Source: a virus. From it: a stretch of 64,000 nt of DNA. A program made the position numbers and the translations under genes. The DNA lies in IMG/VR virus record IMGVR_UViG_3300010396_000038, positions 204 to 64,203 of that record, one strand, 5' to 3'. Below, piece by piece: positions 7,066 through 61,375 of this stretch. How positions within the stretch are numbered: position 1 is the first letter of the stretch; each line of letters begins with the position of its first letter. The notes under the pieces were generated by a model that did not search any database, had not been told where the DNA came from, and saw nothing but the letters and a program-made list of their open reading frames with translations.

Positions 7066-7288
7066 CCTGGGCAAGATCCGGATCGTAGTGCGGGCGTCGC
7101 CGCCCGGGCTGCGCACGGTGGCCTCGTTCACGCGGCAGGGCCTCGAGGACAAGCTCGAGGCCGGCGACTGGACGGTGGACAGCACCCACGAGCGGACGAT
7201 CCCGATGAGGATCGGGCCCCTCACGTACCACCAGACGCAGCACTACGCGTACGTGGTGCCACGTGCTACAATCTCGAGCCATGACTGA
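7049..7288 (+). CDS. hypothetical protein (79 aa)
   Basis: High GC3; ends in an ATGA-type overlap with the next gene. Confidence 0.4.
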   Translation: MPPSSSLGKIRIVVRASPPGLRTVASFTRQGLEDKLEAGDWTVDSTHERTIPMRIGPLTYHQTQHYAYVVPRATISSHD

Positions 7289-8521: not shown

Positions 8522-8804
8522 CATCAAGATAGTCGACGACACCGACAGCGGCGACTGGCAGGCGATCTACGTGGACGGCGCGCTCCTCTACGAGGACCAC
8601 TACCTCGAGGCGGACCGGGTCCTGGACGTGCTCGGGGTCGGGTTCGAGTACGTCCGCGCCCTCACGGACGACTCGGGCCACTTCCCGAAGAGGTTCGCCG
8701 ACGTGACGACGGAGAGGGAGTCGAGGCGGCGCGAGCTCCTGGAGGAGGCGGAGCGCCTGCGCGAGCAGGCGGAGATCCTCGAGGCGGAGGCGGCGGGTGT
8801 CTAG
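8514..8804 (+). CDS. hypothetical protein (96 aa)
   Basis: High GC3; acidic C-terminal coiled-coil-like segment. Confidence 0.45.
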   Translation: MRDIKIVDDTDSGDWQAIYVDGALLYEDHYLEADRVLDVLGVGFEYVRALTDDSGHFPKRFADVTTERESRRRELLEEAERLREQAEILEAEAAGV

Positions 8805-9495
8805 CGACGGGCTCGGTGACCGCATCAAGCGGTACGAGAACGCGTACAGGCACCACCTGACGCCGAGGTCGTGCGTGGCGGTGCGGGTGGACGGGCGCGC
8901 GTTCCACACCTGGACCAAGCGGTGCGACCGCCCGTTCGACGACAGGCTTCACCGGGCCATGGTGCACGCCACGCGGGCGACGATCGGCGAGATGCAGGGC
9001 GTCAAGCTGGCCTACACCCAGTCGGACGAGGCGTCGTTCCTGCTGACCGACTTCGACACGCACGAGACTCAGGGGTGGTTCGGGTACAACCTGCAGAAGC
9101 TGGCGTCGGTCTCGGCGTCGGCGTTCACCGCGCACTTCAACCAGGCGACGCTGCCCTGGGCCTCGAGGACGCCGGGGCCGGCGACGTTCGACGCCCGCGC
9201 CTTCGTGGTGCCGACGGACGACGCGCCCAACGCGTTCGTCTGGCGGCAGCGGGACTGGGAGCGGAACAGCGTCCAGATGCTTGCGAGGTCGCGGTACTCG
9301 CACGCGGAGCTCCACGGGCTGTCCGCGGACGACGTCAAGCTGGCGCTGACCGCCGACGGGACGCCCTGGGAGGACCTGCCCGACCGGCACAGGCACGGCA
9401 CCTTCGTGACCAGGGACGGCGACGAGATCTGCCGGCGGCTGGAGTACGATGAGATATCGAGGCTGTGCAGCCCGAACCCAGAGGAGGAGTCTTGA
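8797..9495 (+). CDS. Thg1-like protein (tRNA-His guanylyltransferase family, 3'-5' nucleotide polymerase)
   Basis: N-terminal RIKRYE..VAVRVDGRAFHTWTK matches the Thg1 FEYVRxFE..VVRxDGRxFHxFxK. Conserved acidic SDE motif present. GTG start. Confidence 0.7.
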   Translation: MSSDGLGDRIKRYENAYRHHLTPRSCVAVRVDGRAFHTWTKRCDRPFDDRLHRAMVHATRATIGEMQGVKLAYTQSDEASFLLTDFDTHETQGWFGYNLQKLASVSASAFTAHFNQATLPWASRTPGPATFDARAFVVPTDDAPNAFVWRQRDWERNSVQMLARSRYSHAELHGLSADDVKLALTADGTPWEDLPDRHRHGTFVTRDGDEICRRLEYDEISRLCSPNPEEES

Positions 9496-10409
9496 CGATC
9501 AACAGGTCCGGCCAGACGTTCGCGCTCATGGAGGCGCACGACTTCAGCGCGCACGACGTGGGCCGGTTCGCGGTCGAGCGGCAGACGATCTGGCACAAGC
9601 GCACGATCCTCGGCGAGCCCGGGCCGTGGACGGAGGACCCGGCGCTCCAGAGGTTCCACTTCTGCAACGTGCAGCGCGACCTGGACCGAGGGACGGTCTA
9701 CCTCGCGACGCAGCTCGCGGCGCACGCGGGCGCCCCGCGGGCGGAGAGGCTGCTGAACACGGCGATGTACAGGCAGCTGAACAGGCGCGACCTCTGGGAG
9801 TCGGGGGCCGCCGGCTGGATCGCGCCCACCGCCGACGGCGTGCTGGGCGCGTGCGAGGCGCTGGAACGACACCGGCAGGCGGGCAACTCGATCGGCCCCA
9901 CGTCGTGGATGCCGTCGACCGGCACCGTCTCGGGCTGCCTCCGGGAGGTCGGCCTCGGCGTCGTCGAGCACCTGGGCGAGCTGGACGAGCTGTGCGACTC
10001 CGTCACCGACGGCTCCCTCGAGCCGGTGCAGAAGTACATGAAGAAGAACTGCCGGCGCCTGACGGGCATGGTCGGGTTCCAGGTGTGCCTGGACCTGACG
10101 TACACCTACCCGAACCTCTCGGACGACGTCTGGGTGTGGCTGTACGGCGGCCACGAGGACACCGGCTCGCACTGGACCGCGCGCCGGCTGCGCCCCGACA
10201 TGACCACGCTGGAGTGCTGCCGGTGGCTCAGGGACACGCAGGACGCGTGGCTGGCGCCGCACGGCTGGGGCGACGTCGCGTGGGAGGGCAAGCCGAGGCT
10301 GTCCCTGGCGGACGTGGAGCACCTGCTGTGCGAGTACAGGAAGTGGGTGCGGGCGACCCTCACCAGGGGCGCGAAGCGCAAGTACCGCGGGCTCGGGGAG
10401 GGGTCGTGA
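9492..10409 (+). CDS. hypothetical protein, possibly aGPT-pyrophosphorylase-like DNA base-modification enzyme
   Basis: TTG start with RBS GAGGAGGAG and a TTGA overlap. Conserved-looking block EPGPWTEDPALQRFHFCNVQRDLDRGTVYL. Family assignment comes from memory only. Confidence 0.3.
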   Translation: MTINRSGQTFALMEAHDFSAHDVGRFAVERQTIWHKRTILGEPGPWTEDPALQRFHFCNVQRDLDRGTVYLATQLAAHAGAPRAERLLNTAMYRQLNRRDLWESGAAGWIAPTADGVLGACEALERHRQAGNSIGPTSWMPSTGTVSGCLREVGLGVVEHLGELDELCDSVTDGSLEPVQKYMKKNCRRLTGMVGFQVCLDLTYTYPNLSDDVWVWLYGGHEDTGSHWTARRLRPDMTTLECCRWLRDTQDAWLAPHGWGDVAWEGKPRLSLADVEHLLCEYRKWVRATLTRGAKRKYRGLGEGS

Positions 10410-13417: not shown

Positions 13418-13625
13418 CTCGACTGAGCGCGCGTACGGCCCGACCACGCCGGAGGACGTCGCGCGGCTGCGCAAGGTCTACCCCGTGGAGACCGCGGGGC
13501 GCACGGACGAGTACCTGGCACAGGTGATCGAGGGCGCCAAGGACTGGATCGGGCAGATCAAGTGGTCCTGGACGGTCGTGGCCAGCAGCCACCTACGGAC
13601 CGGGAGGTACAGCCAAAATGGCTAG
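13404..13625 (+). CDS. hypothetical protein (73 aa)
   Basis: GTG start overlapping the upstream gene; high GC3. Confidence 0.4.
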   Translation: MSVDSSTERAYGPTTPEDVARLRKVYPVETAGRTDEYLAQVIEGAKDWIGQIKWSWTVVASSHLRTGRYSQNG

Positions 13626-14661
13626 GGTCGACGTCGAGCGCCTGGACGCGCTCGTGGGCGAGGGCTGGCTCAAGGTCCAGCACCACCCAGAGTTCCCGCT
13701 CAGGATCTACAACTACACGGCGCAGACGCAGTTCAAGCGGCACTGGACGGACCTGACGGTCATGTGCCGCGGGCTGATCGTCACGGACGGCGGCCACGTG
13801 GTCGCGAGGCCGTTCCCCAAGTTCTTCAACCACGACGAGGTCGACGGCCTCCCGGACGAGCCGTTCACCGTGACGGAGAAGCTCGACGGCTCGCTCGGGA
13901 TCATGTTCCCGGGGCCGGACGAGGAGCTCCACGTCGCGTCGCGCGGCAGCTTCGTCTCGGAGCAGGCCAGGATGGGCTCGATCATGCTCGAGGAGTACCT
14001 CGACGAGCACGGCGAGCTCCGCTGGCGCGCCGGCACGACGACGCTGTTCGAGATCATCTACCCGGAGAACCGGATCGTGGTCGACTACGGGGGACGGCGG
14101 GAGCTGGTGTACCTGGCCACGATCGACAACGAGACGGGCGACGACGCCCCGCCCGAGCTGGAGACGCGGTGGGAGGGCGCCAGGGCCCGGACGTACGACT
14201 CGGACGACATCGAGGCGCTCTCGCGGCTGACGGCCCCGAACAGCGAGGGCTTCGTGGCGCGGTTCTCGTCGGGCCTGCGGGTCAAGATCAAGCTGGACGA
14301 GTACGTGCGGCTGCACAGGCTCCGCTCCCAGCTGTCCGCGAGGTACGTCTGGGACTGCCTCAGGAACGGCGAGGACGTCGTCGGCGTGATCGGGCACCTG
14401 CCCGACGAGGTCTACGGGGAGGTGATCAGGGTCCGCGACGAGATCCAGGCGGAGCACGACCTGCTAGTCAAGCGGTGCCGCGCGGTCTTCGAGGGCCGGC
14501 CGACGGCCGACCGAAAGGGGACGGCGCTGTACTTCATAGGGTCGAGGGCCTGCACGAGCGTGCTGTTCGCCATGCTCGACGGTAAGCCGTGGGAGGACCT
14601 GGCGTGGCGCCAGGTCGAGCCCGAGCACAAACCTATCTGGGAGGACGCGGAGTGGGACTGA
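13618..14661 (+). CDS. RNA ligase, T4 Rnl1 family (tRNA repair ligase)
   Basis: RIYNYTAQ..CRGLIV..ARPFPKFFNHDE..TEKLDGSLGIMF aligns with T4 Rnl1 RIFSYNYAS..CRGIMFE..SRPMEKFFNLNE..TKEDGSLVS, including the nucleotidyltransferase motif I lysine. Confidence 0.8.
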   Translation: MARVDVERLDALVGEGWLKVQHHPEFPLRIYNYTAQTQFKRHWTDLTVMCRGLIVTDGGHVVARPFPKFFNHDEVDGLPDEPFTVTEKLDGSLGIMFPGPDEELHVASRGSFVSEQARMGSIMLEEYLDEHGELRWRAGTTTLFEIIYPENRIVVDYGGRRELVYLATIDNETGDDAPPELETRWEGARARTYDSDDIEALSRLTAPNSEGFVARFSSGLRVKIKLDEYVRLHRLRSQLSARYVWDCLRNGEDVVGVIGHLPDEVYGEVIRVRDEIQAEHDLLVKRCRAVFEGRPTADRKGTALYFIGSRACTSVLFAMLDGKPWEDLAWRQVEPEHKPIWEDAEWD

Positions 14662-15161: not shown

Positions 15162-15349
15162 TGACGCTCGAGGAGTGGCAGGCGGGCGTCACGGGCGTCG
15201 AGCGGGTCGGCGACGGCTACCGCTACGCGAGCGGCGGCGTGACGTACCACGGGACCGTGGCGGCGCTCAGGACGGTCCTGAGGTCGCTGGACGAGCGCGT
15301 GTGGGCGCCGGCGCTTGGACCGGGACGAACGACGAACGGAGAGACATGA
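15158..15349 (+). CDS. hypothetical protein (63 aa)
   Basis: ATGA overlap start. Confidence 0.4.
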   Translation: MMTLEEWQAGVTGVERVGDGYRYASGGVTYHGTVAALRTVLRSLDERVWAPALGPGRTTNGET

Positions 15350-15819
15350 GCACGATCACGCCGCCCAAGGAGGCGGTTCACGGGCGCAAGTCCGTCTTCC
15401 TGGCGGGCGGCATCACGGGCTGTCCGGACTGGCAGACGGACGCCGTCGACATGCTGGAGAGGGAGCACCACAGGGCCGGGATGGCGGGCGTGCCGTTCGA
15501 CGTGTACAACCCGCGGAGGCCGGACTTCGACACGTCCGACCCCGGCATGACGGTGCAGCAGATCCACTGGGAGCACAGGCACCTGCGCAAGGCGGCCGTG
15601 ATCCTGTTCTGGTTCTGCGCCGAGACCCTGCAGCCGATCTCGCTGTACGAACTCGGTGCGTGGTCCATGACGAACAAGCCGATCGTGGTGGGCTCGCACC
15701 CGGACTACCCGCGCCGGCAGGACGTGGTGATCCAGACGATGCTGTCGCGGCCGGACGCCTACGTCATAGGCGACCTGGAGGAGACCGTGCGGCTGGCCGA
15801 GAGGACGCTGCTCACGTGA
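15346..15819 (+). CDS. nucleoside 2-deoxyribosyltransferase-like / DNPH1-like protein
   Basis: SVFLAGGITGCPDWQ Rossmann-like N-terminus, typical of the NDT/DNPH1 fold. ATGA overlap start. Confidence 0.45.
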   Translation: MSTITPPKEAVHGRKSVFLAGGITGCPDWQTDAVDMLEREHHRAGMAGVPFDVYNPRRPDFDTSDPGMTVQQIHWEHRHLRKAAVILFWFCAETLQPISLYELGAWSMTNKPIVVGSHPDYPRRQDVVIQTMLSRPDAYVIGDLEETVRLAERTLLT

Positions 15820-16049
15820 TGACGGAGGAGCAGATCGAGGAGACGGCCGCGGCCCTGCGGAGGGACGTGGACCGGCTGGAGCTGGAGAGGCTCAGGGCGC
15901 TCTCGGACAAGGGCGCGTACTTCCTGAGGGTGGCGCGCGACGCGTTCGCCGAGATGGGGCACGGCACCGACGTGACCGACCTGGACGAGTTCCTGGACGA
16001 CGCGCGCGAGGTACACGCGACCCTGACGCGCGCCCTGGTGCGGCCGTGA
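15819..16049 (+). CDS. hypothetical protein (76 aa)
   Basis: Start overlaps the upstream stop (GTGATG). Confidence 0.35.
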   Translation: MTEEQIEETAAALRRDVDRLELERLRALSDKGAYFLRVARDAFAEMGHGTDVTDLDEFLDDAREVHATLTRALVRP

Positions 16050-16169
16050 GCTGGCTGACGAGGTGGCTGCTGACCAGGCTGGTGCGCCTGGCGCGGAGGC
16101 GGGTCGAGAAGCTCACCGCCAGGATTTCGGACCCGGGAGGCCCCCGCCGGGTCTAGTAGTATCTTCTCC

Positions 16170-16673
16170 GTGACGAATAACGGAGAGACCAACCCGAAGG
16201 TCGACGCGGCGACCAGGGACGGCAAGGCGCCGCTCGACCTTCTGGAGAACACGGCCGACGAGGCCATCGCCTGGGCGCTCAAGGACGGCGCGACCAAGTA
16301 CGGGAAGCAGAACTACAGGACGATCCCGATCTACATGTCGACGTACGCGGCGGCGATCCGCCGGCACGTCGGCGCGTGGCTCGACGGCGAGGACGACGCC
16401 GCCGACTCGGGACTGCACCACCTCGCCCACGTCGGGGCGAACCTGCACGTCGTGTTCGGCGCGATGGACGCCGGCACGCTCGTGGACGACCGCGGGCCGC
16501 AGGAGCGGTCCCCGGAGCAGGAGGCCCGCTCGACGGCGTCGAACGGGCAGCACTCCCGCGGACTGGGCGCGGAGGGCTGGAGGGAGCGGCTCTACCCCTG
16601 CGCGGACTGCGGTAAGGTCAAGAACGCGCGGCCGGACATGTACTGCGGCGTGTGCGTGGAGGACTATCAATGA
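16170..16673 (+). CDS. dATP/dGTP diphosphohydrolase N-terminal-domain-like protein
   Basis: KAPLDLLENTADEAIAWALKDGATKYGKQNY resembles the K.R.DL.P..AL..VA.VL..GA.KY..NW signature, recalled from memory. C-terminal CxxC..CxxC. Confidence 0.4.
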   Translation: MTNNGETNPKVDAATRDGKAPLDLLENTADEAIAWALKDGATKYGKQNYRTIPIYMSTYAAAIRRHVGAWLDGEDDAADSGLHHLAHVGANLHVVFGAMDAGTLVDDRGPQERSPEQEARSTASNGQHSRGLGAEGWRERLYPCADCGKVKNARPDMYCGVCVEDYQ

Positions 16674-19860: not shown

Positions 19861-20217
19861 ATGGGGTACCTGAACCAGCAGCTCGCCCAGCAGAGGGGGG
19901 TCTACAACGTGGACCCCCACGCCCTGCTGGGCGAGGACCGGGCGCGGTACGTCAGGGAGAACGTGCTCGCGGCGATCAAGGAGCTCACGGAGGTCCTCGA
20001 CTGCTTCGAGTGGAAGCCCTGGCACCGGGGCATCCCGGGCTACGCGATGGGGATGTCGGTGGAGCCGCGGCAGCACATAGCCGAGGAGCTAGTCGACATC
20101 ATGAAGTTCGTGTTCAACGTCGCGCTGGTGGAGGGCCTGTCGGACGAGGACCTCGAGGCGACGTTCGAGTACAAGGCCCGACGCAACGCCGAGAGGCACG
20201 AGGGCGCGAGGATGTAG
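19861..20217 (+). CDS. all-alpha NTP pyrophosphohydrolase (MazG / dimeric-dUTPase-like)
   Basis: E..E.L..CFEWKPWH motif typical of MazG/HisE-like NTP-PPases; 118 aa. Confidence 0.5.
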   Translation: MGYLNQQLAQQRGVYNVDPHALLGEDRARYVRENVLAAIKELTEVLDCFEWKPWHRGIPGYAMGMSVEPRQHIAEELVDIMKFVFNVALVEGLSDEDLEATFEYKARRNAERHEGARM

Positions 20218-22300: not shown

Positions 22301-23176
22301 ATGAGCGAGTACACGATAGGCGAGGGCGCGGAGTCGTTCCTGCGCGCGAAGCGCCGGCGGCTGGCCGCGTCCTCCTATGAGTCGTACTCGGCCGTGATCG
22401 CGAAGCTGGTGCGGCACTTCGGGGCGGACACGCCCGTGTCCAGGCTCGAGCCGCCGGACGGCACCGACCTCATGGAGCAGTTCATGGAGGACCACTGGGG
22501 CGAGACCCCGTACGCCTTCAACCGGAACATGAGCGTGGTCCGCGGCCTCATGGAGCACCTGATCCAGCGGGAGCGGCTGCACCGCGACCCGACCAAGCCC
22601 ATCGAGCGGGCGCGGCCCGAGCGGCACGCCAGGACCACGTTCGACCGCGAGACGGTGGACCAGATCCTGGCCGCGGCCGAGGGCCCGCGCGACCGGATCG
22701 CGCTCAGGCTGCTGCTGGTCTACGGCCTGCGTAAGGGCGCCCTGGGCGGGATCCAGCTCGTGTGCTTCGACACCGTCAGGCGGATGGTGTCGTTCAAGAC
22801 CAAGGGCGGGCGCTACCACGCCGTCCCGATCGTCGGGGACGAGCTCTGGGCCGACCTCGCCGAGCTCGGGGGCCACCCCGGGGACTACCTGCTCCACAGG
22901 CGCGGGACGACGAAGGAGCCGATGAGCCCGCACGGCGTGCACCTCTGGTGGTACGCGAGGCTCGCGGACGCCGGCGTGGTGGAGCGGGGGACGACCTCCG
23001 GCCAGCGCATGCACAAGGCGCGGCACACCGCCGGCCAGCGGGTCCTCGACGGGACGGGCAACCTGAAGGCGGCGCAGCGGCTGCTCGGGCACGCCTCGAT
23101 CCAGACGACCGGGGACGTCTACACGGACTGGGACTCGGAGGACCTCCGAGGCACGATGGAGAGTCTCCGGGACTGA
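22301..23176 (+). CDS. int: tyrosine integrase/recombinase
   Basis: R..(K)..ARHTAGQR (HxxR) and LLGHASIQTTGDVY catalytic Tyr motif. Confidence 0.85.
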   Translation: MSEYTIGEGAESFLRAKRRRLAASSYESYSAVIAKLVRHFGADTPVSRLEPPDGTDLMEQFMEDHWGETPYAFNRNMSVVRGLMEHLIQRERLHRDPTKPIERARPERHARTTFDRETVDQILAAAEGPRDRIALRLLLVYGLRKGALGGIQLVCFDTVRRMVSFKTKGGRYHAVPIVGDELWADLAELGGHPGDYLLHRRGTTKEPMSPHGVHLWWYARLADAGVVERGTTSGQRMHKARHTAGQRVLDGTGNLKAAQRLLGHASIQTTGDVYTDWDSEDLRGTMESLRD

Positions 23177-23295: not shown

Positions 23296-24453
23296 GTGCC
23301 GAGCGATACGTGGGTCTACTGGGACAGCAGGTACGACTGCCGTTCCGTCGGCCACTGGCCGAACGCCGTCTACCAGTTCCGGCGCCGGCACCCAGACGGG
23401 TCGACGGGCCCCGCGCTGGCCGGACGCCTCTGCCCGCGCTGCGACAGCGTCCGGCCCCTCGACCGCGACAACTTCTACATCCGGCCCAGCGGGCGCGCGG
23501 AGTACTGCGTCACCTGCCACACCGAGTACTACCAGGAGCGCGCCCGGAACCGGCGCGCGGCCCAGAACCCGGCGCGGCTGCAGTTCGGGGTCGAGATCGA
23601 GTACTCCTTCAAGTCCGGCCGCGTGGACCGGCCCGACCGGGGGACGCTCGCCCAGCTGCTCCGGGAGGCCGGGATCGACTGCCAGGAGCAGAACTACAAC
23701 CACCAGGTCCGGGCCGGCTGGAAGATAGTGCCGGACGCGTCGGTGACGGCGGGCGGCGAGCTCGTCTCCCCGCCGATGCGGTTCGAGGACGGGTCGTTCG
23801 AGCAGATCACCAAGGCGTGCGACGTGCTGCGCGCCGCGGGGTGCACGGCGGACTCGACGTGCGGCCTGCACGTCCACCTGGAGGTCCGCGGGTACGGCCC
23901 GCGCAAGATCAAGGACGTGTACCGGACCTGGTACAACAACCAGGAGACGATCGACCTGACGGTGGCCCGCAGCCGGCGGGACGGGCGGTGGTGCTCGCAC
24001 CTGACGCAGAGCGACATGAGCCGGGTCGAGGGCATCGACCCGACCGAGAACGCGACCAAGACCGGGCTGGCGCGGATCGACCGCTACAAGAACGTCAACG
24101 GCAACTGCTACGGCAGGCAGGGGACGCTCGAGATCCGGCTCCACCAGGGCACAGTCCTCGGGAGCAAGATCGAGCACTGGGTGCGGTTCTGCAAGTCCAC
24201 GTTCACGCTGGCCCACGAGGGGGTCACGGACGAGCAGGCCGGGCTGGGGTCGCTGCTGACGGCGTGCCGGTCCCACGGGCTGCCGGAGGAGTCGGTCGCG
24301 TTCATGCAGAGGCGGGCGCTCCAGCTGTCCACGCCCCGCGGTCGCCGGCCGGAGCCGGAGCCGGCCGGGGTGCTCAACGAGACGCAGCTTTACGTGACGC
24401 GGGCGGACGGCACCACGACGCCCATCGGTGACCTCGCGCTGGTGGGCTCATGA
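23296..24453 (+). CDS. amidoligase (Amidoligase_2 family, GS-like fold)
   Basis: Signature ..ADSTCGLHVHLEV.. plus a conserved Arg/Glu-rich core. GTG start. Confidence 0.7.
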   Translation: MPSDTWVYWDSRYDCRSVGHWPNAVYQFRRRHPDGSTGPALAGRLCPRCDSVRPLDRDNFYIRPSGRAEYCVTCHTEYYQERARNRRAAQNPARLQFGVEIEYSFKSGRVDRPDRGTLAQLLREAGIDCQEQNYNHQVRAGWKIVPDASVTAGGELVSPPMRFEDGSFEQITKACDVLRAAGCTADSTCGLHVHLEVRGYGPRKIKDVYRTWYNNQETIDLTVARSRRDGRWCSHLTQSDMSRVEGIDPTENATKTGLARIDRYKNVNGNCYGRQGTLEIRLHQGTVLGSKIEHWVRFCKSTFTLAHEGVTDEQAGLGSLLTACRSHGLPEESVAFMQRRALQLSTPRGRRPEPEPAGVLNETQLYVTRADGTTTPIGDLALVGS

Positions 24454-24701
24454 TCGAGCTCCTGTGGCCGAACGGCGAGGTGTCGTCCGGCGAGACGTGG
24501 CGGGACGTCGAGGACTCGGTGAGGTCCTCGCAGTGGTCCCCGTACAAGACGCGGGCCGAGTTCAGGCGCGAGATGCGCCGCAGGGCCCTGGTGTGGAGCG
24601 GGCAGACCGTCCGCACCGGCCGGACCTCCGAGTCCTTCATCAAGGCGCTCGGGGCAGTCAACATGTTCATGATCGTGGAGGACGGCGATGTCGCAGAGTA
24701 G
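24450..24701 (+). CDS. hypothetical small protein (83 aa) ending in ..EDGDVAE
   Basis: ATGA overlap start; sandwiched between the amidoligase and the C26 peptidase; acidic C-terminus. Confidence 0.45.
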   Translation: MIELLWPNGEVSSGETWRDVEDSVRSSQWSPYKTRAEFRREMRRRALVWSGQTVRTGRTSESFIKALGAVNMFMIVEDGDVAE

Positions 24702-25632
24702 GAAGACGAGAGAGCGTGGGCCCGAGCGGCCCCGGGTGCTCGTGCTGGAGGCCCTGGCCGGGGGCGCGGACTGCGTGCAGGCGGCCGGCGGGGCGCCGCT
24801 CGACGTGCGCCCGACGGACATCGAGCACGCGGAGGCGATGATCGAGGAGGGCGACTGGCACGGCCTGCTCCTCACGGGCGGCGGCGACGTGGACCCGCGC
24901 ATGTACGGGCAGCGCCCCAAGCCGGAGGTGTACGGCGTCTCGGAGACGCGGGACCTCATAGAGACGTACGCGCTGGAGATGGCCCGGGACAAGGGCGTGC
25001 CGGTGCTGGGCATCTGCCGGGGCAGCCAGCTGATCAACGTCGAGGCGGGCGGGGCCCTCCAGCAGCACATCGACGGCCACCGGGGCGTCGACCACGACGT
25101 GCGCGCCAAGAAGGGTTCGGTCCTGCGCAGGGCCGCCGGCAGCAGCCCGCGGGTCGTGTCCCTGCACCACCAGCAGATCTCCCGCGTGGCCCGGGGCTAC
25201 GTGGTCTCCGGCCGCGCGCCGGACGGCACGGTCGAGGCGATCGAGTCGCGCAACGGGCGCGTCCTGGGCGTGCAGTTCCACCCGGAAATGGACCCGTACG
25301 AGACGTACGCCCAGGGCATCTTCAGGTGGCTCGTGCTCGAGTCGGCGCGGCGCGCCGGGATGCCCGACCCGCCGCTGGGGACCCTCCGGCGCAAGTCGGT
25401 GGCGCCCAGCAGGTACCAGTCGGTGCGCCGCAAGCGCGCGAGCCGGCCGGTCCGGGCGCCCCGGCCGACGTTCGGGCCGGGCGTCCGGGTGTCGTGGATC
25501 TGCCCGCACTGCGGGATCAGGTTCGACAAGGAGCAGGACAAGATCGACCACGTCGAGATCCTGCACGGCCCGGACGCGCAGCTCAGGCGCGCCAGGTTCA
25601 TCGAGAGAGCGACGAAAGGATACGGACGATGA
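24688..25632 (+). CDS. class I glutamine amidotransferase-like peptidase C26 (gamma-glutamyl hydrolase, PuuD-like) fused to a C-terminal C2H2 zinc finger
   Basis: GICRGSQLINV catalytic Cys. VSLHHQQI resembles SFHHQ. HPE His. C-terminal CPHCGIRFDKEQDKIDHVEILH = C-x2-C-x12-H-x4-H. Confidence 0.7.
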   Translation: MSQSRKTRERGPERPRVLVLEALAGGADCVQAAGGAPLDVRPTDIEHAEAMIEEGDWHGLLLTGGGDVDPRMYGQRPKPEVYGVSETRDLIETYALEMARDKGVPVLGICRGSQLINVEAGGALQQHIDGHRGVDHDVRAKKGSVLRRAAGSSPRVVSLHHQQISRVARGYVVSGRAPDGTVEAIESRNGRVLGVQFHPEMDPYETYAQGIFRWLVLESARRAGMPDPPLGTLRRKSVAPSRYQSVRRKRASRPVRAPRPTFGPGVRVSWICPHCGIRFDKEQDKIDHVEILHGPDAQLRRARFIERATKGYGR

Positions 25633-28017: not shown

Positions 28018-28088
28018 AGGGGAGTGGTCTAGTGGTACGATGCGGGTCTCCAAAACTCGCGACTCGGGTTCGATTCCCGGCTCCCCTG
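28018..28088 (+). tRNA. tRNA-Trp (anticodon CCA)
   Basis: Cloverleaf built by hand: acceptor AGGGGAG/CTCCCCT, anticodon stem CGGGT/ACTCG with loop CTCCAAA, T-arm TCGGG-TTCGATT-CCCGG. Close to bacterial tRNA-Trp. 3' CCA not encoded. Confidence 0.8.
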
Positions 28089-28123
28089 CTAGCAGTAACG
28101 ACAAGACCGACGAGAGGAACCGC

Positions 28124-33405: not shown

Positions 33406-33755
33406 CCGGCGCGAGGAGGATCATCGCAGTCGGCGCCGCGGCGCTCGCCGTCGGCGGGGCCGTGACGGCGTGCGGCCAGTCCAACGACTACCCGACGTGC
33501 CGGCCGCACTCCCAGAAGTGCCGGCAGACGGCGGACGACACGTGGGTGCCGTACTGGTACTACGCGTCGCTGCTCAGGGCGCAGCACACGACGCGCCCGA
33601 CGGCCAAGACGGGGGCGACACCGACCGGCTCGGAGGAGCGGAGCGCCGGCGCGCCGGAGAGCGCGGTCGAGCACTTCTCGGCGCCGAGCGAGTCTGAGCA
33701 CCCATCGGCGCCGTCGGAGCGCGTCGCCCCGTCGGTGCACATCTCGGAGCCGTGA
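33402..33755 (+). CDS. putative lipoprotein (117 aa)
   Basis: ATGA overlap start; signal-like N-terminus with AVTAC lipobox-like Cys. Confidence 0.4.
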   Translation: MTGARRIIAVGAAALAVGGAVTACGQSNDYPTCRPHSQKCRQTADDTWVPYWYYASLLRAQHTTRPTAKTGATPTGSEERSAGAPESAVEHFSAPSESEHPSAPSERVAPSVHISEP

Positions 33756-34177
33756 TGGGGGTCTCGAAACGCACCAAGGAGAAGCTCACGCTCTGGGTCG
33801 AGGACCTCGAGCGGGGCGGGCACCTGCAGACGGGGGGCCAGCTGCACGGGATCGAGGCCGACCGTTGTACGCACAGGTACTGTTGCCTAGGCCGTCTCGC
33901 GGAAGTCGCGATCGCGGACGGCGTCAACATGGTGGTGACCACCCGGGACGAGCGGAGCCTGCCGGGCTCGCCCGAGGGGCTGCCCGTCCGCACGGCCGTC
34001 GGGTACGACGGGGAGTTCGGGTTCGTCCCGGAGCGGGTCTACGAGTGGCTGGACATGTCGGAGAGCCACACCCGCGCGTTCTTCACGTACGCGAAGATGA
34101 ACGACCGAGGTTACCGGTTCCCGGAGATCGCGGAGCAGGTCAGGGCGGACTTCGGTCTCGGGGAGCGTGAGGCGTGA
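33752..34177 (+). CDS. hypothetical protein (141 aa)
   Basis: Start overlaps the upstream stop; high GC3. Confidence 0.45.
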   Translation: MMGVSKRTKEKLTLWVEDLERGGHLQTGGQLHGIEADRCTHRYCCLGRLAEVAIADGVNMVVTTRDERSLPGSPEGLPVRTAVGYDGEFGFVPERVYEWLDMSESHTRAFFTYAKMNDRGYRFPEIAEQVRADFGLGEREA

Positions 34178-34365
34178 ACATCAGGGTGAGGATCGGCACT
34201 TTCTTCGCGGCGAACGCCAGGTACGACGCGGTCGTCTGCCAGGTGGACGACGAGGAGTGGGAGGAGATGAGCGAGAAGGAGCGGGACGACTTCCTGCGCG
34301 AGGTCGCCCAGGACGAGCTCAACAACCAGGTCGACGCGGAGGCGTTCGCGGAGCCCGAGGACTGA
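34174..34365 (+). CDS. hypothetical acidic protein (63 aa)
   Basis: GTGA overlap start. Confidence 0.4.
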   Translation: MNIRVRIGTFFAANARYDAVVCQVDDEEWEEMSEKERDDFLREVAQDELNNQVDAEAFAEPED

Positions 34366-34371
34366 GACGCG

Positions 34372-34445
34372 GCCCCGGTAGCTCAGCAGGACAGAGCGCA
34401 CGCCTCCTAAGCGTGAGGTCGCCGGTTCGAGTCCGGCCCGGGGCG
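34372..34445 (+). tRNA. tRNA-Arg (anticodon CCU)
   Basis: Acceptor GCCCCGG/CCGGGGC, D-arm GCTC-AGCAGGACA-GAGC, anticodon stem CACGC/GCGTG with loop CTCCTAA, T-arm GCCGG-TTCGAGT-CCGGC. Confidence 0.8.
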
Positions 34446-34491
34446 TACAATTGAAGCATGATTCGCATCAAGATAACGATAGGAGACGCGA

Positions 34492-35415
34492 ATGCCAGAT
34501 CACCGCGACGTAGGAGTTGTGGTAGGTAGGTTCCAGGTCCCCGAGCTGCACGACGCGCACAGGAACCTGATCCAGAGGGTGTGCGACTCGCACGGGAAGG
34601 TGCTGATCTTCCTTGGGGTCTCGCCGCTCTGGTCCACGAAGCAGAACCCGCTGGACTTCGAGGCCAGGAAGCAGATGATCCTCGCGGCGTTCCCGCAGGT
34701 GAGCGTCCTGTACGTCAAGGACGTGAACGACGACGCCCTGTGGTCCAAGCGCCTGGACGCGATGATCTCGGACGTGGTCACGCCGGCGCAGTCCGTGCTG
34801 CTGTACGGCGGCCGGGACTCGTTCGTGAGTCGGTACTCCGGCCGCTACCCGACCACGGAGCTGGAGCAGGACACCTGGGTGTCCGGCTCGGTGATCCGCG
34901 ACCAGGTCAGGAGGAGCTCCGTCAAGGCGACGGCCGACTTCCGGGCCGGCGTCGTGTGGGGCGCCTTCTGCAGGTACCCGACCTGCTACCCGACGGTGGA
35001 CGTGGCGATCCTCAACGAGAGCCAGACCAAGATCCTGCTCGGGCGCAAGCCCTACGAGAAGAAGTTCCGCCTGATCGGTGGGTTCGCGGAGCCGGACTCC
35101 GTCTCGTACGAGCAGGACGCCAGGCGCGAGGTGGCCGAGGAGGTCGGCGTCGAGATCACGGACCCGGAGTACATCGGGAGCTTCAAGGTCGACGACTGGC
35201 GGTACCGCGGGGAGACGGACAAGATCAAGACGCTCCTGTTCCTCGCGCGGTACATGCACGGCGTGGTGCGGCCGGGGGACGACATCGTGGAGGCCAGGTG
35301 GTTCCCCGTCGACGAGGCGGACGTCGTGGAGACGCACCGGCGCCTCATGACCGAGGTCAGGTACCACACCGACCGAGCCCGCAAGGCGAAGGTCCAAGAT
35401 ACGGATAAGGACTAG
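34492..35415 (+). CDS. nadM: bifunctional NMN adenylyltransferase / Nudix hydrolase (NadM-Nudix type)
   Basis: N-terminal nucleotidyltransferase GRFQVPELHDAHRNLI (H.AH motif). C-terminal Nudix box REVAEEVGVE. Confidence 0.75.
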   Translation: MPDHRDVGVVVGRFQVPELHDAHRNLIQRVCDSHGKVLIFLGVSPLWSTKQNPLDFEARKQMILAAFPQVSVLYVKDVNDDALWSKRLDAMISDVVTPAQSVLLYGGRDSFVSRYSGRYPTTELEQDTWVSGSVIRDQVRRSSVKATADFRAGVVWGAFCRYPTCYPTVDVAILNESQTKILLGRKPYEKKFRLIGGFAEPDSVSYEQDARREVAEEVGVEITDPEYIGSFKVDDWRYRGETDKIKTLLFLARYMHGVVRPGDDIVEARWFPVDEADVVETHRRLMTEVRYHTDRARKAKVQDTDKD

Positions 35416-35419
35416 GGAC

Positions 35420-36877
35420 ATGGACAACATCATCCTCGCCACGGACAGCTACAAGCTGACGCACTGGCGGCAGTACCCGCCCGGAACGCGGACGGTCTAC
35501 TCGTACCTCGAGAGCCGGGAGGGGGCGGAGTTCCCGGAGACGGTGTTCTTCGGGCTCCAGGCCGTCCTGAACCAGTACCTGCTCGACCCAGTCGAGCCGT
35601 GGATGCTGGTCGAGGCCGTCAACCTGGGCAGGGCGCACTTCGGGGCGGACCTGGTGAACGAGGCCGGCTGGCGGCGGGTCATCGGCGACCACGACGGGTA
35701 CCTGCCCCTCAGGATCCGGGCGGTGCCCGAGGGCACGCCCGTGCCCACGGGCAACGTGCTGATGACGGTCGAGAACACGGACCCGGAGCTACCGTGGCTG
35801 ACGAACGCCGTGGAGAGCCTGCTGACGCACGTCTGGTACCCGTCGACCGTGGCCACGCTGAGCCGCCAGGTCAAGAAGGACATCGCCCACTGGCTCGAGG
35901 CGACGACGGGCTCGACCGACGGCGCGGACCTGATGCTTCAGGACTTCGGGTACCGCGGGGCGGCGACGCACGACGCCGCGGCGATCGGCGGGGCCGCGCA
36001 CCTGGTCAACTTCCTGGGTTCGGACACGCTGCCGGCGATGCTGTTCGCCCAGGAGCACTACGGGGCGTCGTTCGACGGGCTGGCGTACTCCGTGCCGGCG
36101 ACCGAGCACTCGGTCATGACCGCGCGCGGCCGGGACGGCGAGGCGGACGTGGTCCGGCAGCTCCTGGACGCGTACCCGAGCGGGATCCTGTCGGTGGTCG
36201 CGGACAGCTACGACATCTACCGGTTCGTCGAGAAGTACGTGGGCGAGACGTTCAAGGCCCCGATCATGCAGCGAGACGGCACCTTCGTGGTGCGGCCCGA
36301 CTCGCTGACCAAGCACCACTGGACGCCGGAGACGCTCGTCCTGTGGATCGTCCAGAGCCTGGGCGGCAGTTTCGGGTACGAGACGACCCCGCAGGGGTAC
36401 AGGGTCCTGGATCCGCACGTGCGGGTCCTGTGGGGCGACGGGATCGACCGCGAGGGCGTCAGGGCGATCCTCTCGACGCTGGCGGGCGCCGGCTGGGCGG
36501 CCAACAACATGGTGTTCGGCATGGGCGGCGGCCTGCTGCAGAAAGTCAACCGGGACACGCAGCGGTTCGCGTTCAAGTGCTCCGCCATGGAGGACGCGGA
36601 CGGCTGGCGGGACGTCCAGAAGATGCCGCTCGACGCGAGCAAGGTCTCGAAGGCCGGCCGATTCCAGCTAAGCCGGTTCACGGACGAGCACGGCGACCCG
36701 CACTACGACACGCTGCCGCTCGGGACGAGGGTCGCCATGACTGCGGACATCAGGATCGGCCGGCACGGCGACGACCGCCGGAGCACCGAGTCCGACGTGC
36801 TCGAGGACGTCTTCCTGAACGGGGACCTCGAGCGGTACCAGAGGTTCGACGACGTCCGTCGTCGGGCGGCGCTCTGA
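35420..36877 (+). CDS. nadV: nicotinamide phosphoribosyltransferase (NAMPT/NadV)
   Basis: N-terminal NIILATDSYKLTHW signature; 485 aa. Confidence 0.85.
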   Translation: MDNIILATDSYKLTHWRQYPPGTRTVYSYLESREGAEFPETVFFGLQAVLNQYLLDPVEPWMLVEAVNLGRAHFGADLVNEAGWRRVIGDHDGYLPLRIRAVPEGTPVPTGNVLMTVENTDPELPWLTNAVESLLTHVWYPSTVATLSRQVKKDIAHWLEATTGSTDGADLMLQDFGYRGAATHDAAAIGGAAHLVNFLGSDTLPAMLFAQEHYGASFDGLAYSVPATEHSVMTARGRDGEADVVRQLLDAYPSGILSVVADSYDIYRFVEKYVGETFKAPIMQRDGTFVVRPDSLTKHHWTPETLVLWIVQSLGGSFGYETTPQGYRVLDPHVRVLWGDGIDREGVRAILSTLAGAGWAANNMVFGMGGGLLQKVNRDTQRFAFKCSAMEDADGWRDVQKMPLDASKVSKAGRFQLSRFTDEHGDPHYDTLPLGTRVAMTADIRIGRHGDDRRSTESDVLEDVFLNGDLERYQRFDDVRRRAAL

Positions 36878-36878
36878 C

Positions 36879-37070
36879 ATGTTCGACATGAGCTCGCCGG
36901 AGATGATCTCCTGGGAGGTCGCGTACGCGGACCGAGCCTCGTGGTTCGGGACGCTGTGCGACATCCGCAACATACACGAGACGCCCGACCGCGACGACGC
37001 GGCCCGCAGGGCGTCGCACGCGTCCGACGGCCCCACGGGCCGCGACGACGCGCCGCAGACGCTACAATAA
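36879..37070 (+). CDS. hypothetical protein (63 aa)
   Basis: High GC3. Confidence 0.35.
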   Translation: MFDMSSPEMISWEVAYADRASWFGTLCDIRNIHETPDRDDAARRASHASDGPTGRDDAPQTLQ

Positions 37071-37079
37071 GCAGAGAGA

Positions 37080-37104
37080 GGGCCCGGGGCGGTCGCCCCG
37101 GGCC
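37080..37104 (+). terminator. GC-rich stem-loop (GGCCCGGGGCG-gtc-CGCCCCGGGCC), terminator-like, no U-tract
   Basis: Perfect 10-11 bp inverted repeat directly after the NAD-salvage genes and before the RBS AAGGAGGA of the next gene. Confidence 0.45.
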
Positions 37105-37125
37105 TACATACCACAAGGAGGATCG

Positions 37126-37446
37126 ATGAAGTATCTCGTCCCCGCCGTGCTGTGCCTGTGCCTGGCCCTGACCGCCTGCGGTAAGGGCGGGTCGAGCCGA
37201 CTCGCGAACAACCCGCAGGCCAAGGCAGACGAGGCCAAGGCCGCGAAGATCTTCAAGGCCTGCGAGCCGTCCGACCCGACGTCCCTCCGCACGAAGTCGG
37301 GCCGCGTGAAGTTCGAGGACTGCGTGTTTCCGGTCAAGAACCGGACCGCCGGCGCGAAGTGCATCGTCAACGGTCTCATCGGGCACCTCCCGACCAAGGC
37401 CCGCGTCGAGCGCGTCTCCCTGACGTGCATCGGGCGGTACGCATGA
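37126..37446 (+). CDS. lipoprotein (signal + lipobox LTAC)
   Basis: MKYLVPAVLCLCLALTACGKGG. Confidence 0.6.
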   Translation: MKYLVPAVLCLCLALTACGKGGSSRLANNPQAKADEAKAAKIFKACEPSDPTSLRTKSGRVKFEDCVFPVKNRTAGAKCIVNGLIGHLPTKARVERVSLTCIGRYA

Positions 37447-38345
37447 GCGTTTCGCTTCACCGCCGGCTCAGGCCGGCCGCGACGCTCACCGGCACCGCGG
37501 CCTCGGTCAAGGTGAAGGTCGGGGGGCAGAGCCCCGGCCCGCCCTGGGTCTCGTTCCGCAAGAACCCGGCCAAGTGGGCGTTCTACACCGCGCAGACCCG
37601 CGCCTACCAGGTGGCCGTGGCGCACGTCGGCCTGTTCGCGGTGGCGGGCCTCTACTACCTACTGCTACAGACGAGGTACGACGTCGGCCCGGTGCACGTG
37701 TTCCTCAAGCCCTGGTGGGACGGCCTGTTCTCCTGGAAGAACTGGCCCACCATCCGGCACCTGATCCGGGACTGCGGCGAGGGCTTCCTGGGCACCCTAC
37801 TGGCGCTCATGCTGGTGACCAACTACTACAAGATCAAGGACAACGCGGTCAACCGGTTCCTGATCAAGATGTCGTCCGGCTGGACGATCCTCCTCGCGCC
37901 GCTCGTCATCATCCTCGCCGCGGTGCCGGGGTTCCTGCTCGGGTACGGCGTGATCGAGGGCCTGCGGCTGGTGCTCCACGCCCACACGCTCAACCCGACC
38001 CTGTCCGCGCACCCGTCGTTCGTCGCCAAGCTGTACGCGGACGACACCGACGCGAAGATCGTCGGCGTCTTCGGCGGCCTGCTGTTCGGGCACACCGCCG
38101 CGCGCCCCGTCTTCGCGACGATCCTGCGGTTCTTCGCTACCCGCCGGGTGGCCCGCGGCAAGCGGGACCGGGTCTGGCAGCCCGTGTACTTCCGGGCGCT
38201 CGTCAGGCAGACGGCCCTGGCGGGCACCGCGGCGGCCGTGGCGAAGACCCACGGCGCGCTCACCAAGCTGGGGGTCACGGTCGCCGTGGTCGCCCTGCTC
38301 GGGTTCGCCTACGAGGGGTACTACGTGATCCACCACTTCGCCTAG
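37443..38345 (+). CDS. polytopic membrane protein (about 300 aa)
   Basis: ATGA overlap start; multiple hydrophobic helices. Confidence 0.5.
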   Translation: MSVSLHRRLRPAATLTGTAASVKVKVGGQSPGPPWVSFRKNPAKWAFYTAQTRAYQVAVAHVGLFAVAGLYYLLLQTRYDVGPVHVFLKPWWDGLFSWKNWPTIRHLIRDCGEGFLGTLLALMLVTNYYKIKDNAVNRFLIKMSSGWTILLAPLVIILAAVPGFLLGYGVIEGLRLVLHAHTLNPTLSAHPSFVAKLYADDTDAKIVGVFGGLLFGHTAARPVFATILRFFATRRVARGKRDRVWQPVYFRALVRQTALAGTAAAVAKTHGALTKLGVTVAVVALLGFAYEGYYVIHHFA

Positions 38346-38559: not shown

Positions 38560-38565
38560 CGCAGA

Positions 38566-38595
38566 AGAGGCCCCCGGCGTGAGCCGGGGGCCTCT
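38566..38595. terminator. bidirectional terminator-like hairpin (13-bp perfect GC-rich stem, loop GTGA) at the convergence point of + and - strand gene blocks
   Basis: AGAGGCCCCCGGC gtga GCCGGGGGCCTCT read directly from the sequence. Confidence 0.55.
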
Positions 38596-38624
38596 CTCGT
38601 CCTGCGGGGAACTGCGCCGTGTTT

Positions 38625-39470
38625 CTAGAGCGCCCGGACGATGTGGTTGAGCGCCAGGTAGGGCTGCATGTTGTTGTGGCCGCCGCCCGACCCCGCGCTG
38701 TTCGTGCCGGTGATGCCGGTCGACCCGCTCGCGGTGTTGCCGAGGGAGACGATCTCGGCGCCGGAGAAGGCGCCGATCGAGGGGATGATCGAGGAGCCCG
38801 AGAACGGGTTGACCCCGAACCCGACCCAGGTGCGGCCGAGGTTGTCCACCGGGACGGAGTTCCCGCCGAAGGTGTGGAAGTGCGTGGGGTCGGTGATGGT
38901 GTGGGAGTGCGACTGGAGGTCAGCGGCGACCGTCTCCGCGCCGCCCGTCGACCCGAGGGCGCGGTTGCTGAGCCCGGAGCCCTGGCCGGCGCCGACGATC
39001 GCCCGGCTCTTCGGGTTGGGGATGTTGAACGTGGTAGAGCCGTCGCCCGAGCCGTACGTGGTGCCGCAGAGCCCGAAGAGCCCCGAGTAGGTGCTCCGGC
39101 TCACGGCGCGGCCGTCCAGGACGAGCCACCTGATGGTGCCGTCCGGGTCGACCGGGTCGGACGACCCGACGTACGGCTGCACGGCCCCGACGGGCGGGCT
39201 GCCGGTGCCCGAGCCGCCCCCGCCCGACGGCTGGCCGGTGGGCACCCAGACCCAGGTGGTGCCCGTGTCCAGGAACCAGAGGGTGGTGTCGGTCGCGTAG
39301 TAGACTCGGCCCGCGAGGCTGGCCGCCGGCCGGTTCGTGAAGAGCCCCGACGAGAAGGTCACCGCGTTGTCGAGCGTCGCCGCCGCCGCCTGCGCGGTGG
39401 CCGGGTAGGACGACACGTTGTCGGTGCCGACCGGGTATACGATTCCGAGTCTGGATGTCGTTCCAGGCAA
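38625..39470 (-). CDS. tail fibre protein with C-terminal tail-collar domain
   Basis: C-terminal GGGHNNMQPYLALNHIV is the classic tail-collar-domain ending; Gly/Ser/Thr-rich fibre body. Confidence 0.7.
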   Translation of the reverse strand: MPGTTSRLGIVYPVGTDNVSSYPATAQAAAATLDNAVTFSSGLFTNRPAASLAGRVYYATDTTLWFLDTGTTWVWVPTGQPSGGGGSGTGSPPVGAVQPYVGSSDPVDPDGTIRWLVLDGRAVSRSTYSGLFGLCGTTYGSGDGSTTFNIPNPKSRAIVGAGQGSGLSNRALGSTGGAETVAADLQSHSHTITDPTHFHTFGGNSVPVDNLGRTWVGFGVNPFSGSSIIPSIGAFSGAEIVSLGNTASGSTGITGTNSAGSGGGHNNMQPYLALNHIVRAL

Positions 39471-61284: not shown

Positions 61285-61302
61285 TCGCCTCCCTTAGGTG
61301 AG

Positions 61303-61375
61303 CACCCCGTGCCGGATTCGAACCGACGACCTCCTGGCTGAGAACCAGGCGTCCTCGCCGCTAGACCAACGGGGC
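61303..61375 (-). tRNA. tRNA-Glu (anticodon CUC)
   Basis: Reverse complement gives acceptor GCCCCGT/ACGGGGT, D-region GGTCTAGCGGCGAGGAC typical of tRNA-Glu, anticodon stem CCTGG/CCAGG with loop TTCTCAG, T-arm GTCGG-TTCGAAT-CCGGC. Confidence 0.75.

Follow-up and report, generated by a model that had tools for sequence, protein, structure and literature searches.

A 64,000-nucleotide stretch of tailed-phage DNA (IMG/VR record IMGVR_UViG_3300010396_000038, positions 204 to 64,203), here called the window, carries two adjacent open reading frames, ORF1 and ORF2, that quite probably constitute a two-gene phage NAD+ salvage operon of the NadV/NatV (NARP2) type. ORF1 appears to encode a divergent NadM/NatV-type protein, predicted to be an enzyme, in which a nicotinamide mononucleotide (NMN) adenylyltransferase (NMNAT) domain is followed by a Nudix hydrolase domain, both with conserved catalytic signatures, and ORF2 encodes a nicotinamide phosphoribosyltransferase (NAMPT). 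NARP2 is defined as Nampt plus Nmnat (Osterman et al., bioRxiv 10.1101/2024.02.11.579819). A preliminary description of the window had placed these two genes back to back and called them NARP2-type; both ORFs stand exactly at the positions given there, their identities are borne out by hidden Markov model, PDB-sequence, fold and synteny evidence, and the type assignment is that of the published definition (10.1101/2024.02.11.579819), a Nampt-clade enzyme and an Nmnat with no Adps in the window. The pathway is a known one in phages, not a new kind of system or mechanism; what is modestly new is a very divergent phage lineage with NARP2 and a motif-variant NMNAT-Nudix partner in a tight operon.

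ORF2 scores above the cutoffs of the NAMPT family models (NF006629, and PF18127 with PF04095): 510 bits against a cutoff of 405 for the NCBIfam equivalog NF006629, 107 bits against 25 for Pfam NAMPT_N (E 4.6e-31) and 112 bits against 20.8 for Pfam NAPRTase (E 4.7e-32). It also matches phrog_448 "nicotinamide phosphoribosyl transferase" (E 3.6e-141) and, over its full length, the Xanthomonas and human NAMPTs among PDB sequences (phmmer, E 1e-109 to 1e-114), and shares 37% identity with the experimentally characterized NadV of Vibrio phage KVP40 (E 3e-101). In alignment with the human enzyme ORF2 is identical at Y18, F193, R196, D219, H247, R311 and D313, and again at G353/D354, G383-385, R392 and K400; residue numbers refer to a sequence that we take to be that of human NAMPT, and the same motifs are readable in the PDB alignments. 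By its sequence ORF2 is thus an intact NAMPT that keeps its catalytic motifs, and the corresponding activity is predicted. Because the Namats of the NARP1 pathway are themselves NAMPT homologues, three Adps-linked Namats were brought into a small neighbor-joining tree (without bootstrap), those of Escherichia phage finno, Mycobacterium phage Thibault and Staphylococcus phage Sp2021, each with a Prs-like Adps gene directly 5' of the NAMPT homologue. In this tree ORF2 groups with human NAMPT, KVP40 NadV, gp217 of Tunturiibacter phage Tunturi_5 and metagenomic relatives, apart from the three Namats, which form one group.

The Nudix domain of ORF1 is recognized by Pfam (E 2.2e-15, residues 168-286), and profile and structure comparisons cover both of its domains. 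Relatives of ORF1 fall into 1,815 clusters at E <= 1e-5 in a large protein database, often under the JGI label "bifunctional NMN adenylyltransferase/nudix hydrolase". A profile made from 30 of these clusters has as its top PDB matches, over both domains, 2qjt of Francisella (E 2.3e-17) and 2qjo of Synechocystis (E 1.2e-14), solved and biochemically characterized bifunctional NadM-Nudix enzymes, and it matches the archaeal NMNAT 1f9a with E 3.5e-6. The AlphaFold2 model of ORF1 (pLDDT 85) predicts an N-terminal Rossmann-like NMNAT domain and a C-terminal Nudix domain. The top six Foldseek matches of the model are to 2r5w, 2qjt and 2qjo, over 323-351 columns at E 4e-15; the global TM score to these NadM-Nudix structures is ~0.38, a low value because the domain orientation differs. 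Compared with KVP40 NatV, whose activity is established by experiment, ORF1 shows 21% identity over the full length by BLASTP (E 1e-5), and hhalign joins the two over both domains and 272 columns with 97% probability (E 1e-10). The KVP40 gene annotated as nadR, KVP40.0211, was also tried as NatV; it has a P-loop kinase domain and gave no result in comparison with ORF1, and natV is in fact KVP40.0162.

Conservation of the ORF1 motifs was counted by alignment column in 84 related loci, 80 of them IMG/VR loci (drawn from at least 249 contigs) and four from elsewhere; 65 of the 84 matched the motif search pattern. The ATP-binding loop of ORF1, GRFQ-VP-ELHDAH, aligns with GRFQ--PFHKGH of 2qjt and GRFR--PFHNGH of NatV, and the spacer in the variant motif is always 4 residues among the 65 loci that match the pattern. 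R13 is kept throughout (84/84) and F14 and H23 nearly so (80/84 each); position 20 is His in 78 loci and Thr in five, and at position 22 Ala (53 loci) is commoner than Gly (20 loci). The second NMNAT signature, ISxTxxR, is represented by V-S131-G-S-V-I-R136, which hhalign places on I-S-A-T-D-F-R of NatV, with S131 kept in 84/84 and R136 in 82/84; GG is likewise kept in all 84. In the Nudix domain the core REVAEEVGV is intact, and R212, E213, E216 and E217 are each kept in 78-79 of the 84. The loci that carry ORF1 relatives range from 29 to 70% GC, and conservation of the motifs across such a range therefore reflects selection. The loss of catalytic residues that the preliminary description had set against its own claim was not seen, either at the NAMPT sites (Asp and Arg included) or in the R-E-x2-E-E core of the Nudix box.

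Some relatives do have degraded His motifs, altered at the second His or the Gly position: HEEH, HPSQ and HDQQ occur in loci L054, L055, L057 and L075-L078, all on IMG/VR contigs. These loci are the ones without a NAMPT within 4 kb, or with only a 27%-identical NAMPT, and the copies may be decayed or repurposed; degradation where a good NAMPT is lacking nearby fits a functional coupling of the two genes. A separate observation concerns a 260-residue protein from a soil read fragment (SRR6185437_8026535), which differs from ORF1 only by Ala in place of Glu216 (window 35137-35139), inside the REx2EE core; the difference may be natural variation or, in a catalogue of short-read proteins, an error of sequencing.

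The coupling of ORF1 to a NAMPT gene recurs in most of its relatives, which were found on at least 249 viral contigs in a scan of IMG/VR. A NAMPT gene lies within 4 kb and on the same strand in 75 of the 84 loci, nearly always immediately downstream of the ORF1 relative, and three of the nine loci without a nearby NAMPT are cut by the contig end. The same order, ORF1 relative and then NAMPT, is found in the cultured phage Tunturi_5, in a 642-kb uncultured phage and on metagenomic contigs of 129-167 kb. Six loci with the ORF1 subfamily were met in 185,579 species-representative genomes, all six in metagenome-assembled genomes (MAGs) and five with NAMPT downstream. Among 50,697 phage records, 2,019 have a NAMPT or Namat homologue and only five, all of jumbo or huge phages, have a tblastn match to ORF1. 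The ORF1 subfamily is thus mainly viral, rare in cultured phages (the five records just mentioned) and common in uncultivated viruses.

Within the window the two genes are bound closely together. The third-codon-position G+C content (GC3) is 0.95 for ORF1 and 0.97 for ORF2, where real genes of this 69.5% GC window have a GC3 above about 0.9, and the overlapping alternative frames are lower. Only 4 nt separate the ORF1 stop from the ORF2 ATG, and an AAGGA stands 9 nt before that ATG; co-transcription and close translational coupling of ORF1 and ORF2 are therefore almost certain.

NAMPT enzymes make NMN from nicotinamide and phosphoribosyl pyrophosphate (PRPP), and NMNATs of the NadM/NatV type convert NMN and ATP into NAD+. 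ORF2 would accordingly condense nicotinamide with PRPP into NMN, which the N-terminal domain of ORF1 would adenylylate to NAD+ at the expense of ATP. For the Nudix domain of ORF1 the most likely substrate is ADP-ribose, possibly alongside NAD(H), with AMP and either ribose-5-phosphate or NMN as products; by way of the host Prs, the other product of NADase immunity would in this manner be led back into the PRPP pool. The pair is located where the arm of replication and nucleotide-metabolism genes ends, and from this position it is probably expressed together with those genes. The module would keep NAD+ available during infection and blunt NAD+-depleting defences such as those with TIR, SIR2 and SEFIR effectors.

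The counter-defence role proposed here is carried over by analogy from experiments with KVP40, whose pair is enough to make NAD+, increases its level in infected cells, and by restoring NAD+ weakens type I Thoeris (10.1101/2024.02.11.579819; PMC13464706). NARP2, so named by Osterman et al., is present in ~1.1% of sequenced phages (10.1101/2024.02.11.579819; PMC13464706), and 94% of the phages with a KVP40-type Nampt also encode an Nmnat (10.1101/2024.02.11.579819). At the present locus the Nampt is of the NadV clade by identity (37%) and by the neighbor-joining tree, and the Nmnat is the adjacent gene, by remote homology (21% identity). Three phage Adps proteins (by tblastn) and an E. coli Prs sequence found no match in the 64-kb window, which is about half of a 128-kb contig.

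A number of observations weigh against the assignment or against its simplest form. The ORF1 N-terminal domain reaches only 17.2 bits against the Pfam CTP_transf_like model, with a cutoff of 21; the preliminary description had looked to this family for confirmation together with the NAMPT/NAPRTase and NUDIX families. The NCBIfam NadM/NMNAT equivalogs match ORF1 at 20-52 bits (E 1e-10 to 1e-4) against cutoffs of 127-449, the best of them at 51.8 bits with a cutoff of 449, and ORF1 is on these scores of a distinct subfamily and not an equivalog of the curated NMNAT families. Its (H/T)xGH ATP-binding signature has a 2-residue insertion and a Gly to Ala change, both of them family-wide; they are a trait of the whole subfamily and not a lesion of ORF1. 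In the Nudix box, compared with the consensus Gx5Ex7REUxEExGU, the first Glu (Gx5E) is replaced by Ser203 and the upstream half has a 1-residue insertion. The Nudix domain is structurally equally near to NudC-type NAD(H) diphosphatases and to ADP-ribose pyrophosphatases, and its action may either aid or oppose the accumulation of NAD+. The window being half of its contig, the absence of Adps and other NAD genes holds for the window only. Finally, the same pair is found in one of the six MAG loci, that of a high-GC actinobacterial Baekduia sp. MAG (JBAOHN010000008.1, 244561-253427), at 59% identity for the NMNAT-Nudix and 57% for the NAMPT, on a 949-kb contig at 70% GC. Its neighbours there are housekeeping genes (a YchF GTPase, glycosyltransferases, a polysaccharide-synthesis gene and a ferritin-like gene) with no obvious prophage, and the operon can thus be plain metabolism; the pair in this MAG is also a hint of the host lineage (Thermoleophilia/Actinomycetota) or of the donor of the module.

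The rival explanation that survives best differs from the counter-defence reading in purpose and not in chemistry: the pair may supply NAD+ for nucleotide and DNA-modification metabolism, immune evasion being incidental, a possibility to be taken seriously although we consider it somewhat doubtful. Such a metabolic role is said to have been the one first proposed for KVP40 NadV/NatV. It would suit a window rich in nucleotide and DNA-modification genes as well as the housekeeping surroundings of the Baekduia pair, and NARP2 overproduces NAD+ even where no defence system is present (Osterman et al., 10.1101/2024.02.11.579819). However, the KVP40 pair measurably counters Thoeris (10.1101/2024.02.11.579819), members of the subfamily come overwhelmingly from viruses (six loci in the 185,579 species genomes, but at least 249 IMG/VR contigs), and no obvious NAD+ consumer, such as an NAD-dependent ligase, appears among the scanned ORFs. 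The two purposes are in any case compatible and not mutually exclusive.

An unlikely alternative is that the N-terminal domain of ORF1 no longer has adenylyltransferase activity, or has it in altered form, having for example turned to nicotinic acid mononucleotide (NaMN) as substrate or taken on a function in regulation or binding; NAMPT would in that case make NMN only, the host would complete NAD+, and ORF1 would act mainly as a Nudix hydrolase. The insertion and the Gly-to-Ala change in the (H/T)xGH loop, the scores below the Pfam and NCBIfam thresholds, the lower model confidence in the loop of residues 11-20 (block mean pLDDT 73) and the degraded motifs of some relatives, which tend to lack a good NAMPT nearby, would all be in keeping with it. 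However, strong purifying selection acts on R13, F14, H20, H23 and S131...R136 over the whole GC range of the loci, the canonical Gly is present in 20 of the 84 relatives and the canonical alternative Thr in five, and tight synteny with NAMPT is the expectation for a pathway partner; loss or change of function is possible but disfavoured by the pattern of conservation.

That ORF2 is instead a NARP1-type Namat (a nicotinamide ADPR-transferase) using ADPR-PP from an Adps encoded elsewhere is highly improbable and was rejected on the tree, which puts ORF2 with NAMPT/NadV and not with the Namats, on the upstream gene, which is an NMNAT-Nudix gene where NARP1 phages have Adps directly upstream, and on the lack of any Adps/Prs homologue in the 64 kb, in spite of 31-38% identity to NARP1 Namats, the same range as the 37% to KVP40 NadV, and a window that covers half of the contig, and no phage with both pathways is found in Osterman et al. 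(10.1101/2024.02.11.579819).

The two-gene salvage operon is embedded in phage DNA of high GC content (69.5%), of a tailed phage. The plus strand arm of the window (1 to ~38560) encodes a DNA polymerase, helicase, RNA ligase, methyltransferase and many nucleotide-metabolism genes, and the minus strand arm (38625 onward) a tail fibre or collar protein, baseplate wedge, tail sheath and other structural proteins. The exact ORF proteins are also found on a 128,203-bp metagenomic contig, so that the window covers roughly half of that genome. A megablast search with the locus gave no match in the phage records, and no close relative exists among the 50,697 records. The DNA polymerase shows 34% identity to Arthrobacter phage polymerases, and the tail sheath 27% to the sheaths of Arthrobacter and Gordonia myophages. 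The phage belongs to a deeply divergent myovirus lineage, and the host lineage is high-GC and probably actinobacterial.

Other genes of the window are of interest in their own right. A DNA-modification and nucleotide set (1987-2454, 3008-3874, 9465-10409, 15175-15819, 16170-16673, 19861-20217, 23296-24453 and 24688-25632) includes a dCMP deaminase, a thymidylate-synthase-like protein, a 5-hmdU DNA kinase helical domain (PF18723), a nucleoside 2-deoxyribosyltransferase-like protein, a MazZ-like dATP/dGTP diphosphohydrolase N-domain (PF18909), a dUTPase_2-like protein, an amidoligase and a Peptidase_C26/GATase, and suggests that the phage hypermodifies thymidine in its DNA. A Thg1-like tRNA-His guanylyltransferase (PF04446, E 9e-29), an Rnl1-type RNA ligase and a metallophosphoesterase, at 7263-8087, 8797-9495 and 13618-14661, may together with three tRNAs (Trp-CCA, 28018-28089; Arg-CCT, 34372-34445; Glu-CTC, 61302-61375) form a tRNA repair or replacement toolkit against anticodon nucleases. 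A tyrosine recombinase of the Phage_integrase family (22301-23176, E 1.5e-15) is found midway in the replication arm, although in other respects the phage resembles a large myovirus of lytic type.

Table 1. Positions in the window of the NMNAT-Nudix and NAMPT genes, their domains and motifs, and the sequence features that flank them
Feature	Position	Strand	Description
tRNA-Arg, anticodon CCT	34372-34445	+	ARAGORN; Rfam RF00005, 69 bits, E 3e-14
AT-rich spacer, 46 nt	34446-34491	+	41% GC; AGGAG ribosome-binding site 7 nt before ORF1 ATG
ORF1	34492-35415	+	307 aa; ATG start; TAG stop at 35413-35415
ORF1 N-terminal domain, NadM/NatV-type NMNAT	34492-34962	+	residues 1 to ~157
Variant signature G12-R-F-Q-V-P-E-L-H20-D-A22-H23	34525-34560	+	in ORF1 N-terminal domain
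ORF1 C-terminal Nudix hydrolase domain	34969-35415	+	residues ~160-307
Nudix box G197-V220	35080-35151	+	contains R212-E213-x2-E216-E217
ORF2, NAMPT/NadV	35420-36877	+	485 aa; ATG start
63-aa ORF	36879-37070	+	start overlaps NAMPT stop region (TGAcATG); GC3 0.94
G+C-rich hairpin	37080-37105	+	11-bp stem, 4-nt loop, without T-tract

The flanks of the pair (Table 1) had been described as a tRNA-Arg and an AT-rich, promoter-like island on the upstream side and a strong hairpin after the pair. The tRNA is confirmed by both ARAGORN and Rfam and appears as the immediate upstream neighbour of the module, a position that does not imply a functional link. It is the only Rfam match at E <= 1 over 34100-37300, and the short leader therefore holds no riboswitch. 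The AT-richness of the spacer also stands, this being one of only 11 islands of the 64 kb in which GC falls to 45% or less over 40 nt, and it is a possible promoter region, although a scan for the sigma-70 consensus found no match in the spacer. Over the 84 loci the 60 nt 5' of the ORF1 homologues have a median GC 7 points under that of the locus, which is no more than is expected of any intergenic spacer and gives no evidence for a conserved promoter.

On the downstream side the hairpin itself is real (-29.9 kcal/mol for a 66-nt stretch, z = -3.65, none of 200 shuffled sequences being as stable) but it is not adjacent to NAMPT, lying ~200 nt past the stop with the 63-aa ORF in between. It is a candidate for the end of the operon, and was not flagged by a T-run-dependent terminator scan because it lacks a T-run. 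The 63-aa ORF is probably co-transcribed with NAMPT and is also gene-called on the ENA contig; it has no family match in Pfam and PHROG searches and no tblastn match in the 84 related loci. The small flanking ORFs (33752-34177, 34174-34365, the 63-aa ORF and 37126-37446) were considered as parts of the module; none is conserved beside the pair in the 84 loci, and they are therefore placed outside it. The last of these encodes 106 aa with a lipoprotein-type signal MKYLVPAVLCLCLALTAC-G, its ribosome-binding site and start being directly 3' of the hairpin, and is followed by a 328-aa ORF (37359-38345) without family match; these two are the last genes before the strand switch at ~38560-38625 to the minus strand structural genes.

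The locus extends the NARP2-type module to a divergent, high-GC and probably actinobacterial myovirus lineage, and among uncultivated viruses the usual partner of NAMPT is a distinct NMNAT-Nudix subfamily in a tight operon, which is useful for annotation and for estimating the spread of NAD+-reconstitution counter-defence, and provides a compact two-gene cassette for high-GC hosts. A further proposal, tentative and rather unlikely, is that ORF1 represents a separate, mainly viral NMNAT-Nudix lineage with a remodelled GRFQ-xx-xL-H-x-A-H loop, a shorter interdomain region and a NudC-like Nudix domain. If this were true, and if specificity or regulation differed from NatV, the pair would be a functionally distinct NARP2 variant, acting for example on another pyridine nucleotide or, through its Nudix domain, targeting NAD caps or immune signals derived from NAD rather than ADP-ribose; searches based on KVP40 would then under-count NARP2-like counter-defence.

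Among known systems the NadV-NatV pair of KVP40, reportedly described by Lee et al. in 2017, is the closest in plan: it likewise joins a NAMPT with a bifunctional NMNAT-Nudix, the predicted chemistry from nicotinamide and PRPP through NMN to NAD+ is the same, and there is no Adps. However, at 21% identity to NatV, ORF1 is also ~35 residues shorter between its domains and has GRFQ-xx-xLHxAH, as does its subfamily, in place of the GRFRPFHNGH of NatV. In KVP40 natV (94.5 kb) and nadV (138.2 kb) stand ~43 kb apart, whereas the genes here form an adjacent operon, and the fused-operon layout is therefore a feature of the ORF1 subfamily; the host lineage here is moreover high-GC and probably actinobacterial. 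The bacterial NadM-Nudix enzymes of Francisella tularensis (2qjt/2r5w) and Synechocystis (slr0787, 2qjo) give the best profile and fold matches and have the same domain order, but differ in being only 16-18% identical, in the motif variant and shorter length of ORF1, and in the modelled domain orientation (TM ~0.38). Members of the same subfamily, at 38-45% identity to ORF1, are found in Tunturi_5 (gp218/gp217) and in the uncultured huge phages LR756502, LR745206 and LR756500; in Tunturi_5 and LR756502, whose neighbouring genes were examined, the ORF1 relative is followed by NAMPT as here. Unlike the present phage, these are jumbo phages of 300-640 kb with unrelated hosts, and their genes are annotated as "cytidyltransferase" or unannotated.

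The other phage routes of NAD+ rebuilding are more distant in composition. NARP1 (Adps plus Namat) shares with the present pair a NAMPT homologue, the Namat, but ORF2 has no Prs-like Adps beside it, the upstream gene being the NMNAT-Nudix. NARP3 (NadR plus PnuC) shares an NMNAT domain, that of NadR, but the C-terminal domain of ORF1 is a Nudix domain and not a P-loop ribosylnicotinamide kinase domain as in KVP40.0211, and no PnuC match was found among the ORFs scanned, the neighbours of the pair included. KVP40 itself also has the nadR-like KVP40.0211 (P-loop GPESCGKS; 13614-14594 of locus L086) near the pnuC gene KVP40.0215 (15549-16214), which by sequence is the composition later named NARP3, so that KVP40 appears to hold both the NARP2 and the NARP3 routes.

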